A stretch of 64,000 nucleotides of DNA. Origin: a virus. Lineage: Duplodnaviria > Caudoviricetes. The DNA is taken from positions 1-64,000 of IMG/VR virus record IMGVR_UViG_3300049381_000011. One strand, given 5' to 3'. A program made the position numbers and the translations under genes. Numbering within the stretch: position 1 is the stretch's first letter; each line of letters starts with the position of its first letter. Shown piece after piece: positions 10,251 through 58,197 of this stretch. The notes below the pieces were generated by a model. The model was not told where the DNA came from. It saw nothing but the letters and a program-made list of their open reading frames with translations, and searched no databases.

Positions 10251-10673
10251 TCATGCGTTCGCGAGCTCGGCGAACAGGTCCAGCTGGACCGGTGCTGGTG
10301 GCGGGGAGAGCAGGGCGCATACCGCGAAGTGCAGCCGCAGGTCGTTCCACCGCTGCTGTTCGTCGACGGCGGCGAACGCGGCCCGGAGCTCGTCGACGCG
10401 TTCCTGCGTGATCCCGGGCCGGACCATGTCCCACACCTGGGACCAGGTCACCAGGCCGGGATAGGTGCGTACCGGGTGCGGATATTCGTCGTAGCGCAGC
10501 CCGTCGTCGGTCGCCCAGCTCCGATCGGGGTGGTTGACGATCTCGATCAGTCGGGCGCGGAGCTCCGGGACGTCGCGGGGGTTCCGGGCTGTGCTGACCA
10601 GCGCGAGCATCCCTTCTGCGCCGAGGCTGCCACGGACCATGACAGGCCGGTTGACGGGTTTCGGGTCGCTCAT
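10251..10673 (-). CDS. Hypothetical protein with C-terminal QLDLF clamp-binding-like motif
   Basis: Ends PAPVQLDLFAELANA. Confidence 0.6.
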   Translation of the reverse strand: MSDPKPVNRPVMVRGSLGAEGMLALVSTARNPRDVPELRARLIEIVNHPDRSWATDDGLRYDEYPHPVRTYPGLVTWSQVWDMVRPGITQERVDELRAAFAAVDEQQRWNDLRLHFAVCALLSPPPAPVQLDLFAELANA

Positions 10674-44818: not shown

Positions 44819-46480
44819 CTACGGTCGGGCTTCGTCGTCTGCCGGCCCGGGCCCGGGCTCGCCTGGCTTGCCGGGTGCGGTGTCGCCGGCGACACCGGTG
44901 CCTGGGTCGGCAACCGGCGGCGGGGCGTCCTCCTCACGGATCCGGATCACCTCCTGCTCGATCTTCTTCGCATCCCAGTCCGGATGCAGCCTGCTGACAA
45001 GGGTGTGGACGGACGCGGCCCGGGCGCTGGCGAGCAGCTGCAGCGTTGTCGCCTCCTGCTGCGGGTCGACCGCCACCCCGTCCGGCCAGTTGACCTTCGG
45101 CATCGCGGCGACCATGCCGTCCTTGCCGAACTGTTTGATGTCGATTTCCTGCATGGCGTAGGCCAGCCGGGCGATCGGCCCCCGCGCGTACAGGAGTTTC
45201 TTTCCCCTGGTCCGGTACGAGGCTGCCTCCCGCGCGACCACTTCCGTTGCTGTCGCGGCGACCTCGTCAGCCTCACCGAACGTTTGCGTGGAGTAGCCGG
45301 ATCCGCGCAGGATCTGCGCCACCAGCTGCGTGCACGTACGGTCGTGCTGCTCGACTCTGATTTCAAACTGGACGTGCTCCAGCTTCATGCCGCCTTCGGT
45401 GGAGTCGATCAGGTCGACGCCGGTGAAGACCTCCTGCTCCAGGTCAAACGTCGCGCCGGCGCCACGACCAGCGGTCCGTAGGTAGGACTTCGGGACGATG
45501 ATCCTGCCCTTGCCCAGGCGCAGGTCACGCATCCATGACGTCCACGCCTCGTCGAGGGCGTCCATGAGCGGCTCGACACCCTGGTAGTCCGACCGGCCCA
45601 GCGGCGACCCGCGCAGAATCCGGTTCGGGCGCATGTTCGGCAGGTACTCGACTGCCATACCGGTAGCACCGGTCACGATCGTCGTCCCGTCGGCCGGGTC
45701 GACGAGCAGAGCGAACGCCGTCGTTTCCGGATGCGCGGTCAGCGGCATCCGATGGCCGAGTTTCCCCTCGTCCGTCGACCTGTACAGAGCGTGTTGGACC
45801 TGGGCGGCGCGGTGGTATTCGAGGTGGCGCCACCAGTACTTGCTGTCGGTGCCCTCCAGCCGTTCCAGATGCCGCCAGAACGTCACCCCGACGAGCTGCT
45901 GGCCACGCCACTCCGGCACAGCAGCGTCAGGTGGGATCGCGTCGAGCAGCGGATGCGCGGCGACGACCGGGTCCCAGCGGACGCGTAGGTAGGCGCCGCC
46001 GTACGCCGCGGCGATCTCGCCAGCCTCCAACCAGATCGCCTGCGCGTTGGCCAGTTCCAGGATGTCGTTCAGCCGGTCTTTCGTCGGGTTCGTTGCCGGG
46101 CCCGCATCATCGTCCGGTTCCTCGCCGCCCAGCGTGGGGAACAGGAATTCGGGTGGCTCACCGAACAGCAGGTCCGCGGACGTTGCCGCGACGTCACCGG
46201 CGAGCGGGATGTGGAGCTTGTGCTGTTTGGTTGATCCGGCGCCGGGTGGGCTGCCCCAGAACCGGCGCTGGATCCCGCGGGCGATCGCCGTCACGAACCG
46301 GGCGCCGGCCGGCTGCCCGGTCGGGAGCTCGCTACCGGGCCCGAACCCTGGCGTGTCCTGGTAGACGGCGGCGAGCTCTTCCGGGTCGCCGCCGTACCAG
46401 GCACCCCATTGCGCGTACAGCTTGTTCGCCGCGGCCGTCGACGGCGGTGGCCACGCGACGTTAGTGACGGGCAGCGGCAT
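44819..46480 (-). CDS. Portal protein (A118/SPP1-like)
   Basis: LHIPLAGDVAATSADLLFGEPP, LGRSDY, FEIRVEQH, ATATEV. Confidence 0.9.
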   Translation of the reverse strand: MPLPVTNVAWPPPSTAAANKLYAQWGAWYGGDPEELAAVYQDTPGFGPGSELPTGQPAGARFVTAIARGIQRRFWGSPPGAGSTKQHKLHIPLAGDVAATSADLLFGEPPEFLFPTLGGEEPDDDAGPATNPTKDRLNDILELANAQAIWLEAGEIAAAYGGAYLRVRWDPVVAAHPLLDAIPPDAAVPEWRGQQLVGVTFWRHLERLEGTDSKYWWRHLEYHRAAQVQHALYRSTDEGKLGHRMPLTAHPETTAFALLVDPADGTTIVTGATGMAVEYLPNMRPNRILRGSPLGRSDYQGVEPLMDALDEAWTSWMRDLRLGKGRIIVPKSYLRTAGRGAGATFDLEQEVFTGVDLIDSTEGGMKLEHVQFEIRVEQHDRTCTQLVAQILRGSGYSTQTFGEADEVAATATEVVAREAASYRTRGKKLLYARGPIARLAYAMQEIDIKQFGKDGMVAAMPKVNWPDGVAVDPQQEATTLQLLASARAASVHTLVSRLHPDWDAKKIEQEVIRIREEDAPPPVADPGTGVAGDTAPGKPGEPGPGPADDEARP

Positions 46481-54991: not shown

Positions 54992-55182
54992 GGCTACCGC
55001 TCGCCCCAGGTGTACATGGCGCCGGCGAGCCGGTCGACCATCCGCCAGCTGCGCCGCTCCCACCGTTCGGTCCGGTGACGGTGCAGGCAGTCGTTGAGGC
55101 CGGTGAGCAGCAGACCGAGGCGTGCGATCCGGGGTAGTGGCGGCCGCGGCGGGCAGCTCTGGCACATGTCAACACTCCACAC

Positions 55183-55219
55183 TTGACATAACTTGTATGC
55201 GACTACATACTAGTTATGT
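55183..55219 (+). promoter_or_regulatory. TTGACA-17-CATACT promoter overlapped by a palindromic operator
   Basis: ACATAACT-T-GTATG-CGACTA-CATAC-T-AGTTATGT inverted repeat at 55186-55219. Confidence 0.7.
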
Positions 55220-55250
55220 AGCTGGTTGGCGATCGAGATTGGACACCGCG

Positions 55251-55418
55251 ATGAACGACATGGATCTCTTCGGCACCGAGACCACGACCGACACCGCCCC
55301 GGTCGTCGTCGAGCAGCTGGGCCTGTTCGCCACCGAGGCGTTCACCCGCCCGAAGCCGCTCCCCACCGTCGTCAAGGCGCCGAAGTTCGCCGACCAGCTC
55401 GACCTGTTCTCCAACTGA
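55251..55418 (+). CDS. 55-aa peptide with three beta-clamp-binding-like motifs
   Basis: DMDLF, QLGLF, QLDLF; GC3-rich codons. Confidence 0.6.
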   Translation: MNDMDLFGTETTTDTAPVVVEQLGLFATEAFTRPKPLPTVVKAPKFADQLDLFSN

Positions 55419-55429
55419 AGGGCCCGACC

Positions 55430-55831
55430 ATGACCGGCACCGACCCGCAGACTCCCCCCACCGACCATCCGGGCGACGTCGTCGACGAGGAGGTGAGGCG
55501 GGCTTTCGAGATCGTCGAGAGAGGCGCTCGGGCGCGGCTAGCGCTGCAGGAACAGGTTGCGTCGCTCGCCGAAGCGGCACGCGAGATCGACGACGACTTC
55601 CCCGCGCTGCCGATCGACGTGAGACGCATAACCTCCCACGTCATCGCCGCGACCATCTCGGACCTGGTCAGGATCATCGACCTGGCACAGACGGCGATCG
55701 TCACCGCGATCGGGGCCGGTCGCGACCGGCCCGGCGACCAGCTCACCCGCGCGCAGCTCGCCGACGCGCTGGGCATCGACCCCCGCAACCTCGAACGGCA
55801 CAAGCTGGTCCGGAAGGCCAGCGAGATCTAA
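55430..55831 (+). CDS. Helical protein with C-terminal HTH
   Basis: LTRAQLADALGIDPRNL. Confidence 0.65.
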   Translation: MTGTDPQTPPTDHPGDVVDEEVRRAFEIVERGARARLALQEQVASLAEAAREIDDDFPALPIDVRRITSHVIAATISDLVRIIDLAQTAIVTAIGAGRDRPGDQLTRAQLADALGIDPRNLERHKLVRKASEI

Positions 55832-55835
55832 ACGG

Positions 55836-56216
55836 CTACGCAGTACCGGCGGGCGCCTGGTCGGGCTCGCCGGCTTTCTGCTGCCCGGTCCACGGGAGCA
55901 TCAGCCCGTCACCCGGCCTACGCGGTATGACGTGCACGTTCAGGTGGAACACCGTCTGCGTCGCAGCCGTACCGATCGACGTGATGATGTTGCAGCCGAT
56001 CAGGTCGCTGGCGAGCAGCGCGGCGATCCGCATCACCCGTGCGGTGGTGAGGAGGTCCGTAGTCGCGTCCGGGACGTGGAGCCGCGGTACGACGAGCATG
56101 TGTCCCGGCACGACCGGTTCGAGCGGCTCGAAAGCGACGGCGGAGCGCCAGCCGCGGTCAAACTCTCGGCGCTGGATCCGGTCGCAGAACGGGCACTGCT
56201 CCGCTGGCGCGTTCAT
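55836..56216 (-). CDS. HIT family protein with variant triad (HLNVH)
   Basis: CPFC, PLEPVVPGHMLVVPRLHV, ATQTVFHLNVHVIPR. Confidence 0.85.
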   Translation of the reverse strand: MNAPAEQCPFCDRIQRREFDRGWRSAVAFEPLEPVVPGHMLVVPRLHVPDATTDLLTTARVMRIAALLASDLIGCNIITSIGTAATQTVFHLNVHVIPRRPGDGLMLPWTGQQKAGEPDQAPAGTA

Positions 56217-56629
56217 CGGGCGCACAGCACGATGTCGGCGGACCGTTCGGCGACGACCCGCGCTGCCCGACGGCGAACCCAGCTGAAAAACAGCCGATTG
56301 CCGATGTAGCCGGCGGCCTGGGCGCCGGCGGCGCCGGCGAACAGCCAACTGTGCCAGCCGGCGACGTCGAGCGCGCCGACGGTCAGCGCGCTGCACGTCA
56401 GCACGTTGATCCCGAATCCTGTGAAGCCGAGGATCCAGCCGGCCCGACCGGGGGACGCGAGCGCCTGCACCACAGCGAACTGGAGGTGCGGTGCGGCGGC
56501 GGTAATGGCCAGACGTGCGTCGGCGGCCGCGTGCCGCATGTCGGTCGTCGGTCGTTCGAGGAGCACGAGCTCAGCCGCGTCAAACGCGGCCTGGCTGATC
56601 GGGGCGAGAAGTTGCGTGATGGGTCGCAT
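56213..56629 (-). CDS. Membrane protein
   Basis: GGAGG SD; 2 TM. Confidence 0.55.
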   Translation of the reverse strand: MRPITQLLAPISQAAFDAAELVLLERPTTDMRHAAADARLAITAAAPHLQFAVVQALASPGRAGWILGFTGFGINVLTCSALTVGALDVAGWHSWLFAGAAGAQAAGYIGNRLFFSWVRRRAARVVAERSADIVLCAR

Positions 56630-56668: not shown

Positions 56669-56884
56669 CTACTTGTCTTCGGCGGGGGGTCTGGCCAGGC
56701 CGTGGGTGGCGATCGCGACGCCGAGGTCGCGCCACCCTTCCGCGACGGCCAGGAGCCGGCTCGCTTCGCCGATGCTCTCGCAGCTCTCGGCCTGGGCGAG
56801 CAGGACGGCTGCCCGTTCGGCGCAGGTGTGCCGGTCGACTGCCTGCGACTGTGGGACGGCGACGGGTGTCTCAGACGTCGTCAT
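56669..56884 (-). CDS. Small hypothetical protein
   Basis: ATGA overlap with terminase stop. Confidence 0.5.
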   Translation of the reverse strand: MTTSETPVAVPQSQAVDRHTCAERAAVLLAQAESCESIGEASRLLAVAEGWRDLGVAIATHGLARPPAEDK

Positions 56885-58197
56885 AGGATGATCTTGTCCT
56901 TGATGTAGGGCCGCCAAAGCGACTCGGTGGTGTGGACGCCATAGCGGAGCGCGTCGCAGCTGTGGTCATCGGCCTTGATCGGGACGTCTTCGCCCTTCTG
57001 GGCCTTCTCGTCATCCCAGCTGTAGCCCGGGATTTCGTCGATCAGGCCGCGGCACGACTCGTGGACCAGCAGCCGGAAGTTCGCGAGCAGCGTCGCGACG
57101 TTCCGGATGCCGTCCAGGACGTTGTTGCGTGCTTTCGTCGGCGTGAGGTCGTCCTCGAACAGCTGGACGATGAACGACCTGGCGGACGGGTCGACGCAGA
57201 TGTACTCCGGGTCGATCCCCCGCTGCGGGACGAGTAGCCCTGTCGCCGCATCCGGTGTGCCGGTGCCGGGGATCTCGTGGTTGGCCAGCCAGCGCTGGAT
57301 CGACACGCTGTACTGCGCGTCGGTTTTGCTCTTGTGCGCCTGCTTGGCGTCGTAGCGGTATTCGCTGGTCGCGTACAGGCGCTGGTCGACGCCCATGCCG
57401 AGCGAGATCGCCGAGAACGGGTTGGAGGTGCCGTAGTCGACGCCGACGGACAGCCAACGGTCCATGATCGGGAGCCGGTTGACGACGTGGCGGGACTCGT
57501 CCCACATGTCGTAGATCGCACCCTCAGCGGCGACCCAGTGCCCGAGGACGAAGCGGCGGAAGTAGAGGCCCACGAATTGGGCTTTGATCGCTGCTTTGAA
57601 TTCCGGGTCGAGGAACGGGTTGTCGTCCAGGGTGAAGTGCCAGTGCCGCAGCCGGGTGTCCTGCGGCCGCAGGATGAAGTCTTTGCGCAGCCAGTGCGAC
57701 GGGTTGTCGGGGTTGGTGGTGGCGAACAGCATCGCCCCGCGGACGCTCATGCGGCCCAGGAGCTGGGTCCAGAACTCGCGCGGTACGAGGGTCGCCTCGT
57801 CGACGTAGGCGCCGGCCACCGTCATGCCTCGCAGGCGGGTTTCCGCCCGGGCGTCGTTAGCTCCGATGATGTCGACGACCCTGCCGAAGATCCACGCCTG
57901 GTTAGAGCCGGGCGTGTAGTGGATCTCGTCGGCGATCGGTCCGAACAGCGCCGGGTCCTGCAGCACGGAGAACAGGTTCCGGTTGATCGTGTCCTTGGTG
58001 CGGCCGACCATGACCAGGCGGCCGCCGAGCGGCGCGTTACGGACGTACAGCACCCAGCGCAGCAGCGACGCGACCGTCTTGCCGGCACGGATCGCGCCGG
58101 TCCACACGTTGACGCGGGCCCGCGCCTGCCGGATCGACGCGAGTTGTGCCAGTGACAGCGGCGGCGCGGCGCGGAGCTCGTCGTAGGCGACGGTCAT
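56881..58197 (-). CDS. terL: Terminase large subunit (PBSX-like)
   Basis: GAIRAGKT, YVDEATL, TTNPDNPSHWL, GVDYGTSNP, DDHSCDALRY. Confidence 0.95.
   Translation of the reverse strand: MTVAYDELRAAPPLSLAQLASIRQARARVNVWTGAIRAGKTVASLLRWVLYVRNAPLGGRLVMVGRTKDTINRNLFSVLQDPALFGPIADEIHYTPGSNQAWIFGRVVDIIGANDARAETRLRGMTVAGAYVDEATLVPREFWTQLLGRMSVRGAMLFATTNPDNPSHWLRKDFILRPQDTRLRHWHFTLDDNPFLDPEFKAAIKAQFVGLYFRRFVLGHWVAAEGAIYDMWDESRHVVNRLPIMDRWLSVGVDYGTSNPFSAISLGMGVDQRLYATSEYRYDAKQAHKSKTDAQYSVSIQRWLANHEIPGTGTPDAATGLLVPQRGIDPEYICVDPSARSFIVQLFEDDLTPTKARNNVLDGIRNVATLLANFRLLVHESCRGLIDEIPGYSWDDEKAQKGEDVPIKADDHSCDALRYGVHTTESLWRPYIKDKIIL

Follow-up and report, generated by a model that had tools for sequence, protein, structure and literature searches.

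A two-gene unit of a soil phage encodes a 55-residue peptide with three conserved sliding-clamp-binding-like motifs

The sliding clamp DnaN is a hub of bacterial replication and repair. It is also a validated antibiotic target in actinomycetes, with griselimycin acting against mycobacteria, and the role of several clamp-binding motifs within a single partner is, according to a review, not understood (PMC11139829). This question is raised by a 55-residue peptide with three clamp-binding-like motifs that is encoded, together with a 133-residue neighbour, in a tailed phage genome from soil: the IMG/VR virus record IMGVR_UViG_3300049381_000011, which is linear, comprises 95,941 bases, has a CheckV completeness of 93% and was analysed here through its first 64 kb (64,000 nucleotides; the window). 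What does such a peptide bind, are its motifs kept by selection, and how might its expression be controlled? Here we find that the three motifs and their spacing are preserved in a gene that otherwise diverges rapidly, and that the two genes share a predicted promoter covered by a dyad. We narrowly favour the view, drawn from sequence comparison, that the peptide is a ligand of DnaN in which two or three motifs give avidity. The unit has the appearance of an autonomous accessory module of an uncultured soil actinomycete phage: it has a strong predicted promoter of its own, its dyad is unique in the record, and 11 nucleotides separate its two genes.

The translation of the peptide gene (Table 1) matches exactly the sequence quoted in the preliminary description of this locus. 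GC content at its first, second and third codon positions is 0.62, 0.40 and 0.98, a pattern that is typical of a real high-GC gene and missing from the overlapping frames. Two of its motifs, QLGLF and QLDLF, agree with the clamp-binding consensus (QL[S/D]LF or Qxx[L/M]F), whereas DMDLF, which has no Gln, agrees with it in part; all three of the clamp-binding-like motifs described earlier are present, but only the last two are canonical. Fourteen residues separate motifs 1 and 2, and 22 residues separate motifs 2 and 3. AlphaFold2 predicts no secondary structure for the peptide (predicted template-modelling score, pTM, 0.12), in keeping with the earlier expectation of disorder and as would be expected of a carrier of short linear motifs. 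Within this predicted disorder the motifs would be accessible, with motif 1 beginning at residue 3 and motif 3 ending two residues before the stop codon. Searches of Pfam, PHROG, NCBIfam, PADLOC and the PDB returned no match to the peptide. Three other roles were considered and rejected: an arbitrium-type signalling peptide (there is no signal sequence and the N terminus is acidic), a precursor of a ribosomally synthesized and post-translationally modified peptide (no modifying enzymes lie nearby) and a leader peptide for the second gene (55 codons are too many, and selection acts at the level of the motifs).

Under the amino-acid usage of the record, the probability of at least two QLxLF motifs in 55 residues is about 4e-8, and two were reached in none of 2,000,000 shuffles of the peptide's own composition; three [LM]xLF motifs occurred at 1.5e-5. 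In a scan covering hundreds of thousands of windows, one case of this kind could arise by chance, and the conservation test therefore outweighs the motif count. Relatives for this test are few. A word-indexed search of 5.8 billion proteins found one copy of the peptide, 96% identical (P0003), and phmmer against 1.84 billion representatives found only the same copy. IMG/VR and JGI metagenome scans yielded no relative of the peptide, tblastn against 50,697 phage records gave one chance-level match (E = 9), and nothing in the ESM Atlas scored above 0.76. The 133-residue protein has one 97% copy; IMG/VR, phage and metagenome searches yielded none, and the ESM Atlas provided leads only, all below 0.9. 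A diverged relative was reached through the 90% cluster of the 133-residue protein (P0007) and from there its contig (L170), which carries the same promoter, dyad, peptide gene and second gene. Its peptide (P0008) is 57 residues long and 67% identical to ours. Both relatives come from soil metagenomes, and the layout of promoter, dyad and two genes is common to all three versions.

Conservation of the motifs in homologues, which the preliminary description had named as a check, was borne out: DMDLF, QLGLF and QLDLF are intact in both relatives. P0008 differs from the peptide at 18 of 55 aligned residues, and these differences fall on 18 of the 40 residues outside the motifs and on none of the 15 within them (hypergeometric P = 7.9e-4). 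In both relatives motif 1 is unchanged, with one synonymous change at D5; motif 2 is unchanged, with a synonymous CAG to CAA substitution at Q22 in L170; and motif 3 is unchanged next to altered flanking residues (K45, A47 and N55). No insertions or deletions occur between the motifs. Such changes affect the C-terminal end of the peptide, the gap between the two genes and the N-terminal tail encoded by the second gene. By Nei–Gojobori counts against P0008, the proportions of nonsynonymous (pN) and synonymous (pS) differences are 0 and 0.21 for the motif residues, and 0.289 and 0.332 for the rest of the peptide (pN/pS about 0.9), the linkers of which thus appear to evolve close to neutrally; the 133-residue gene compared with L170 gives a pN of 0.052 and a pS of 0.115 (pN/pS 0.45). 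The peptide gene as a whole differs from that of L170 at 38 of 165 nucleotides (23%), compared with 27 of 393 (6.9%) in its neighbour, and with a pS of 0.30 against 0.115 it is about three times more diverged. Many linker codons are altered at two or three positions. Local hypermutation, recombination or diversifying selection acting on the linkers may lie behind this fast divergence. Because the peptide gene is a divergence hot spot, its motifs appear to be kept against a fast background. Taken together, these comparisons indicate that selection keeps the three short motifs and their spacing and nothing else, as is characteristic of a disordered carrier of short linear motifs.

QLGLF, the second motif, is also the C-terminal motif of Escherichia coli Pol II. 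QLDLF, the third, has been reported by several studies as the strongest-binding pentapeptide, with a strong contribution from Gln, and the clamp dimer offers two pockets, on which several motifs in one partner raise apparent affinity by avidity (PMC11139829). The clamps of actinobacteria recognize motifs of this class as well. Mycobacterial DnaQ needs its C-terminal Q[Y/L]ALF for pull-down with DnaN (PMC11348249), and the clamp stimulates Streptomyces NucS (PMC11109965). The context of motif 1, MNDMDLF, resembles motifs of the Mu phage proteins C and Mor, where Qx[D/E][L/M]F near the N terminus, and even its 'DLF-only' form in Mor, have been shown to matter (PMC12867686). When the peptide was modelled with two copies of Streptomyces coelicolor DnaN, as the preliminary description had proposed for an actinomycete clamp, the prediction rose above its controls but reached only the grade of 'weak support' (score 0.58; best of three controls 0.00). 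The runs agree in at least 67% of contacts and the predicted local distance difference test (pLDDT) of the partner is at least 48; no interface was returned. In calibration, 51 of 78 solved complexes and 2 of 108 mismatched pairs reached the mark; the passes at 0.60 or less comprised just 5 of the solved complexes together with all 4 of the passing mismatches. With clamp–peptide complexes already solved, the pass could stem from resemblance to them. The DnaN used is a stand-in, and the score moves the odds little.

The control region of the unit consists of a TTGACA-17-CATACT promoter, found where the preliminary description had placed it; it is the only sigma-70-like match on either strand between 54000 and 57000, where shuffled sequences give 0.1. 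Overlapping the end of the −35 hexamer, the spacer and the −10 hexamer is a dyad, previously described as a 34-bp palindrome; the element is there, but it is made up of two 14-nucleotide arms, complementary at 13 of 14 positions, around a 6-nucleotide spacer. Its half-site occurs nowhere else in the 95,941-base record, even with up to two mismatches. In L170 the −10 hexamer reads CATAAT, a better −10, and the dyad is perfect (14 of 14), the single mismatch having been repaired and a G:C pair having changed to T:A on both sides of the mirror. All three substitutions in the 87-nucleotide upstream region of L170 lie in the arms of the dyad and keep or repair the pairing, and for this reason its symmetry appears to be under selection.

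What reads this symmetry is less straightforward. The dyad could be a nucleic-acid hairpin, either in DNA or in the antisense transcript that read-through of the late operon would produce, with the second gene not its regulator. The pairing-preserving double substitution and the repaired mismatch in L170 would suit a hairpin, as would the C-terminal 30 residues of the 133-residue protein, which are identical in L170 although the dyad has changed. Folded as RNA, moreover, the stem is stable on both strands (−13.7 kcal/mol on the plus strand, −15.4 on the minus strand and −16.0 in L170; z-scores −3.9 to −5.9). One covarying pair is indecisive, however, given that a symmetric protein would also select a mirrored change, and the position of the element speaks for protein binding: it is an AT-rich stretch in a 67% GC genome, placed exactly over the −35/−10 interval, with half-sites 20 nucleotides apart from centre to centre, which is the usual geometry of a site for a dimeric repressor. 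It also lies upstream of the predicted plus-strand transcript start, and a run of T follows it on neither strand. A hairpin is therefore possible but doubtful in our view, and a candidate operator is the better and reasonably probable reading of the dyad.

The 133-residue protein is the best candidate for a factor acting at the dyad, as a putative autoregulator, because it is the only DNA-binding candidate nearby. It had been described as a helix–turn–helix (HTH) protein that follows the peptide; the gene does begin 11 nucleotides after the peptide stop codon, but the HTH is seen only in sub-threshold Pfam matches (HTH_20, E = 5.6e-4, 20.3 bits with a cut-off of 27; Xre-like antitoxin HTH, E = 0.033) and in a low-confidence three-helix tail. 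AlphaFold2 predicts a disordered N-terminal tail, two helices at residues 14–56 and 64–96 and three short C-terminal helices of low confidence at 107–132 (mean pLDDT 68). A Foldseek search of the PDB with this model found no structure at E ≤ 0.001, and a phmmer search of PDB sequences was equally empty. Neither the peptide nor the 133-residue protein matches a toxin, antitoxin or defence family in Pfam, NCBIfam or PADLOC above noise, and the sole PADLOC line for the latter, PD-T7-4 (E = 0.009, 13.5 bits), is at noise level. The 133-residue protein contains no QxxLF-type motif of its own.

The genome around the unit has a high GC content (about 67%), and its minus strand encodes, besides the large terminase TerL and the portal, a MuF-like head protein, a protease-like protein, the major head protein and the tape measure. 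TerL is 53–55% identical to terminases of Streptomyces phages and of the Micromonospora phage pMLP1, so the host is probably a mycelial actinomycete; all DNA datasets with the locus are soil metagenomes. Between TerL and the portal lie about 10 kb of small, mostly family-less genes in mixed orientation, with the two-gene unit and other plus-strand islands among them. The unit opposes its minus-strand flanking genes. The earlier wording, an antisense insertion within the packaging arm, was right about orientation and loose about place, since the site is this accessory stretch. On one side the unit is convergent with a HIT-family gene, with stop codons 4 bp apart, and late minus-strand transcription must therefore cross the unit antisense on its way to the genes beyond; the interval between the HIT gene and those genes yielded no minus-strand promoter. 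The unit would thus be expressed mainly while late transcription is off. The HIT-family protein also has a weak PADLOC match to HIT-type ThsC (E = 7e-4).

On its other side the unit is divergent from a 57-residue open reading frame (ORF) and a phrog_5845 gene, both on the minus strand. The 57-residue ORF is missing from L170 (compared at L170:100-125), where the phrog_5845 gene begins 16 nucleotides from the −35 hexamer in an identical start context (...GGAGTGTTGACATG). As L170 lacks the ORF but keeps this context, the ORF looks like a recent insertion or a duplication of the start region. Relatives of the phrog_5845 gene at 60% occur in two IMG/VR contigs; neither has the two-gene unit upstream, and this synteny yielded no further copies.

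The record encodes a RecE-like exonuclease and a weakly matched DnaD-like or replication-initiator-like protein, and most of its genes have no PHROG; across all 95,941 bases there is no family match to a clamp, Pol III alpha, a family A or B polymerase or DnaB helicase, nor to the tyrosine integrase or large serine recombinase families. Because no clamp, polymerase or helicase is recognizable, the phage probably needs the host clamp. Clamp-binding motifs also occur elsewhere in the record. In a six-frame translation of the whole record QL[SDG]LF is found four times, always in frames with the coding signature of high third-position GC (GC3), and two of the four are in the peptide. Outside the peptide, GC3-supported ORFs hold two QLxLF motifs against 0.13 expected. 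One is near the end of a family-less 140-residue ORF that finishes ...PPPAPVQLDLFAELANA, an exact consensus clamp-binding motif in the classic C-terminal position; this ORF lies in the arm with the RecE-like exonuclease and the replication-initiator-like gene, and no relative was found in IMG/VR. The other is internal to a family-less 213-residue ORF beyond the window, which also has a Cys-rich C-terminal region (CPGCG...CTACEWW). These two further exact QLDLF motifs in coding frames suggest that the phage deals with the host clamp.

Table 1. Coordinates of the two-gene unit, other features of the phage record and analogous mini-proteins (window positions unless another record or contig is named)
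Feature	Position	Strand	Details
Predicted sigma-70/HrdB-type promoter	55183-55211	plus	TTGACA 55183-55188, 17-nt spacer, CATACT 55206-55211
Dyad	55186-55219		arms 55186-55199 and 55206-55219, 6-nt spacer; 13/14 complementary
55-residue peptide gene (P0001)	55251-55418 including stop	plus	coding 55251-55415, stop 55416-55418
Motif 1, DMDLF	55257-55271	plus	residues 3-7; partial clamp-binding motif, without Gln
Motif 2, QLGLF	55314-55328	plus	residues 22-26; canonical clamp-binding pentapeptide
Motif 3, QLDLF	55395-55409	plus	residues 49-53; consensus pentapeptide, two residues from the C terminus
133-residue protein gene (P0002)	55430-55831	plus	starts 11 nt past the peptide stop
57-residue ORF	54994-55167	minus	between the two-gene unit and the phrog_5845 gene
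HIT-family gene	55836-56396	minus	Pfam HIT E = 2.9e-10; phrog_3962
TerL	56881-58197	minus	
Portal	44819-46480	minus	
QLDLF in 140-residue ORF	10272-10286	minus	near the C terminus of ORF 10251-10673, behind a proline-rich linker
Internal TGTQLDLFGAL in 213-residue family-less ORF	record position 70271	minus	ORF at record 69933-70574; beyond the window
62-residue two-motif mini-protein (P0005)	L138:10596-10784		Micromonospora sp. contig NZ_JBITMV010000023.1
64-residue two-motif mini-protein	L157:3851-4042		IMG/VR contig, 100,981 bases

How could such a unit act? We propose that the motifs of the peptide would dock in the hydrophobic client pockets of host DnaN, and that the 22-residue linker between QLGLF and QLDLF would let one peptide fill both pockets of a ring, a span that is possible in principle as estimated from the dimensions of the ring. 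The resulting avidity would displace or exclude other clients of the clamp, namely polymerase, loader and repair enzymes. The 133-residue helical-hairpin protein, with its small C-terminal HTH, would act at the private dyad to autoregulate the unit. Because the phage has no recognizable clamp or polymerase, the effect of the peptide would probably be conditional, partial or timed, acting as a regulated competitor or modulator, or as a toxin-like brake, and not as a constitutive shut-off. Such timed, partial or conditional action fits a unit with a private control element, and the peptide is better explained as a regulated competitor or adaptor than as a factor for plain shut-off. Timed eviction of host repair enzymes is one role within this clamp-ligand reading from which it was not separated. 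In its most specific form, the idea would be that of a 'clamp staple': the two canonical motifs, held by a linker conserved in length and free in sequence, would fill both pockets of a single DnaN ring, while the third would contribute allovalency or reach across to a second ring. Under the unit's own switch, a phage wholly reliant on the host replisome would then evict host clients (for example NucS-type repair nucleases, translesion polymerases or the replicase) at a chosen time. In this full form the proposal is speculative, and we would not count on it. The preliminary description had proposed a multivalent DnaN inhibitor or adaptor that blocks or hijacks host replication; motif conservation, predicted disorder and the weak complex prediction support the ligand part, and a block of host replication fits poorly with a phage that has no recognizable clamp, polymerase or helicase of its own.

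Several observations weigh against a DnaN ligand under its own switch. A strong clamp blocker would also hurt a phage whose record lacks the clamp, polymerase and helicase families. Motif 1 lacks Gln, the residue that gives much of the affinity (PMC11139829), and the S. coelicolor DnaN used in the modelling is a stand-in for the host clamp. There are only three versions of the gene, all from soil metagenomes, and the conservation test therefore rests essentially on one diverged sequence. For the proposed regulator, the HTH match falls below the Pfam threshold, and its unchanged C terminus in L170 accompanies a changed dyad. The Shine–Dalgarno sequence of the peptide gene is weak (GAGATTGGA, about 10 nucleotides upstream), and no RNA dataset is listed among those with the locus, all of which are soil metagenome DNA contigs. 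These last two points would also be expected if the ORF were not functional and its motifs were a chance product of a small frame in GC-rich DNA; with about 250,000 windows and tens of millions of short frames, one event at 4e-8 could occur. A third-position GC of 98% alongside a second-position GC of 40%, a frame and length kept in three versions, the absence of nonsynonymous change in the motifs (pN zero against 0.29 outside them) and a dedicated promoter together make a chance ORF highly improbable. The motifs could instead be real and selected but serve a partner other than DnaN, be it the neighbouring protein, through its helical hairpin, or a different host hub that recognizes short hydrophobic motifs. 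Conservation indeed shows that the motifs matter and not what they bind, the complex prediction is weak and possibly a matter of likeness to solved clamp–peptide structures, and motif 1 departs from the clamp consensus. Yet two of the three motifs match that consensus letter for letter, including a Gln that a generic hydrophobic contact would not need, one is placed C-terminally, like those of many clamp clients, and an unrelated protein in place of DnaN scored 0.00; another partner is accordingly unlikely.

Two further explanations keep the clamp as the target and assign the second gene a different part. In one, a special case of the clamp-ligand idea, the unit would be a toxin–antitoxin or abortive-infection module: the peptide would be a DnaN-directed toxin, the 133-residue protein would neutralize it and repress through the dyad, and loss of the labile partner would free the peptide and stop replication. 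The arrangement is suggestive, with two genes 11 nucleotides apart, a private dyad over the promoter, a faint 'Antitoxin Xre-like HTH' match and the order of mqsRA-type systems, in which the toxin comes first and its partner has a C-terminal HTH. Two unrelated toxins, SocB and the Rosmer toxin RipA, already hit the same clamp pocket (PMC12795458). Nevertheless, database families for toxins, antitoxins and defence are silent on both products, a disordered 55-residue toxin with near-neutral linkers would be atypical, binding between the peptide and the 133-residue protein is purely putative, and the record has no integrase family, such that a prophage setting is not established. A toxin–antitoxin pair thus seems rather unlikely. 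In the other explanation the peptide would be an adaptor that tethers the HTH protein or another phage factor to loaded clamps and so couples expression to replication, by analogy with a split Mu Mor/C or with T4 gp33/gp55 and gp45. Mu C and Mor, HTH activators of about 130–140 residues, carry Qx[D/E][L/M]F at the N-terminal end and QPDLF at the C-terminal end; they depend on the clamp for late transcription, and their overproduction is toxic (PMC12867686). The peptide begins with MNDMDLF, has QLDLF near its C terminus and is encoded just upstream of a 133-residue protein with a helical, dimer-like N-terminal domain and a C-terminal HTH, and the unit lies inside the late region. Against this, the protein has no Mor-family match (E up to 0.1) and, by Foldseek, no Mor-like fold; the motifs are on a separate polypeptide whose contact with the second product is only putative; the unit opposes the late genes and has its own host-type promoter; and the dyad, found only at that promoter, makes no other target promoter evident. 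We regard such an adaptor as decidedly unlikely.

If the clamp-ligand reading holds, a natural 55-residue peptide that consists of motifs and linkers would offer a minimal system for studying avidity on a two-pocket ring, in which evolution marks the residues and spacings that matter. It could serve as a template for bivalent clamp inhibitors, and would represent a new way in which a phage without its own replisome manages that of its host. A clamp staple, were it confirmed, would amount to a gene-encoded, multivalent equivalent of griselimycin and of synthetic peptides built on clamp motifs. It would also be the first such free-standing ligand with several motifs known for a bacterial clamp, with Spd1 and p21 as its parallels in the PCNA system. 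The unit itself is rare, with three metagenomic versions.

Among known systems, the peptide shares its pentapeptide with bacterial clamp clients that carry QL[S/D]LF-type motifs. It does so with Pol II, Pol IV, Pol III alpha, Hda, MutS and MutL, and with mycobacterial DnaQ, DnaE1 and NucS, and as in these clients its motifs are disordered or terminal and conserved amid drifting surroundings (PMC11139829, PMC11348249). The clients, however, are enzymes and regulators that use the motif as a tether, whereas the peptide is made up of three motifs and their linkers with no other domain. Mu Mor and C resemble the unit in being phage-encoded, in pairing an N-terminal x-x-D-L-F with a C-terminal Q-x-D-L-F and in including a small HTH protein of about 130–140 residues; when over-made, they cause toxicity by titrating the clamp (PMC12867686). 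They differ in carrying motifs and HTH on one polypeptide, whereas the unit has a separate 55-residue product, a third motif and no Mor-family similarity. The unit is not a member of the Mor/C family on this comparison, but the logic may be shared.

SocAB of Caulobacter and the Rosmer pair RipAB of Streptococcus pneumoniae are, like the unit, two-gene modules. Their toxic members, SocB and RipA, act at the hydrophobic pocket of DnaN, where suppressor mutations map, and replication is stopped or perturbed (PMC12795458). Neither shows sequence or profile similarity to the peptide, and those toxins have not been described as free disordered multi-motif peptides. The Staphylococcus phages Twort and G1 are large lytic myoviruses with their own replication genes, whereas the soil phage record shows no replication polymerase, clamp or helicase family. 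Their proteins gp168 (Twort) and gp240 (G1) are reported to bind host DnaN and shut off host replication (PMC3594737), and tblastn of 50,697 phage records revealed no relative of the peptide. The peptide would work like a clamp-motif client, and possibly like SocB and RipA or the staphylococcal DnaN binders, while belonging to none of these families by sequence, profile or fold.

Within the reach of our searches, no free-standing multi-motif clamp peptide has been described from bacteria or phages. A pattern scan of IMG/VR for two QLxLF motifs 7–37 residues apart returned almost only repeats in non-coding frames, plus one analogue on contig L157, which resembles a Micromonospora mini-protein (P0005; Table 1). 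Both start M-[ED]-QLDLFG, continue through a Thr/Pro-rich linker to QL[S/A]LF and finish in a conserved ...LDPALH..LI end. In their units (L138:10596-11295 and L157:3851-4510) the second gene encodes a conserved protein of about 150–160 residues with an ECGHxHxNRDW motif, and a large TraB-like gene lies near, joined in L138 by an integrase-like gene. Like the 55-residue peptide, both are encoded first in a two-gene unit, but they have no third QLxLF, their partner genes are unrelated to ours and, when the motifs are kept constant, nothing is left of their similarity to the peptide (z = 0.2 and 1.6). A profile of their family likewise points to no homology with the peptide outside the motifs. 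They are probably analogues, with a similarity that the motifs alone would explain. A sample of about 1,100 actinomycete genomes did not contain their family, and they possibly represent a second class of multi-motif clamp peptides, on conjugative or integrative elements of actinomycetes. Larger chromosomal proteins also carry two QLxLF motifs 20–30 residues apart in proline/alanine-rich tails, in Nonomuraea (L042, L052), Sorangium (L024, L059), a Prevotellaceae metagenome-assembled genome (L076), Streptomyces rubellomurinus (L070) and a Polyangia metagenome-assembled genome (L034). The Nonomuraea protein, of 347–364 residues, ends ...DQLDLFP...DDQLDLFAAA, and that of Sorangium begins MRQLSLFEG...GQLDLFAQ. 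The literature may understate how common tandem clamp motifs are.

The closest parallel in design comes from outside bacteria. Fission yeast Spd1, cited in PMC11139829, is, like the peptide, small and disordered, with at least two clamp-docking motifs that compete with other clients. Spd1 and the other carriers of tandem PCNA motifs act in eukaryotes, on PCNA and through PIP or APIM motifs, and are not homologous to the peptide; by analogy, such small disordered proteins would nonetheless be its nearest conceptual relatives.

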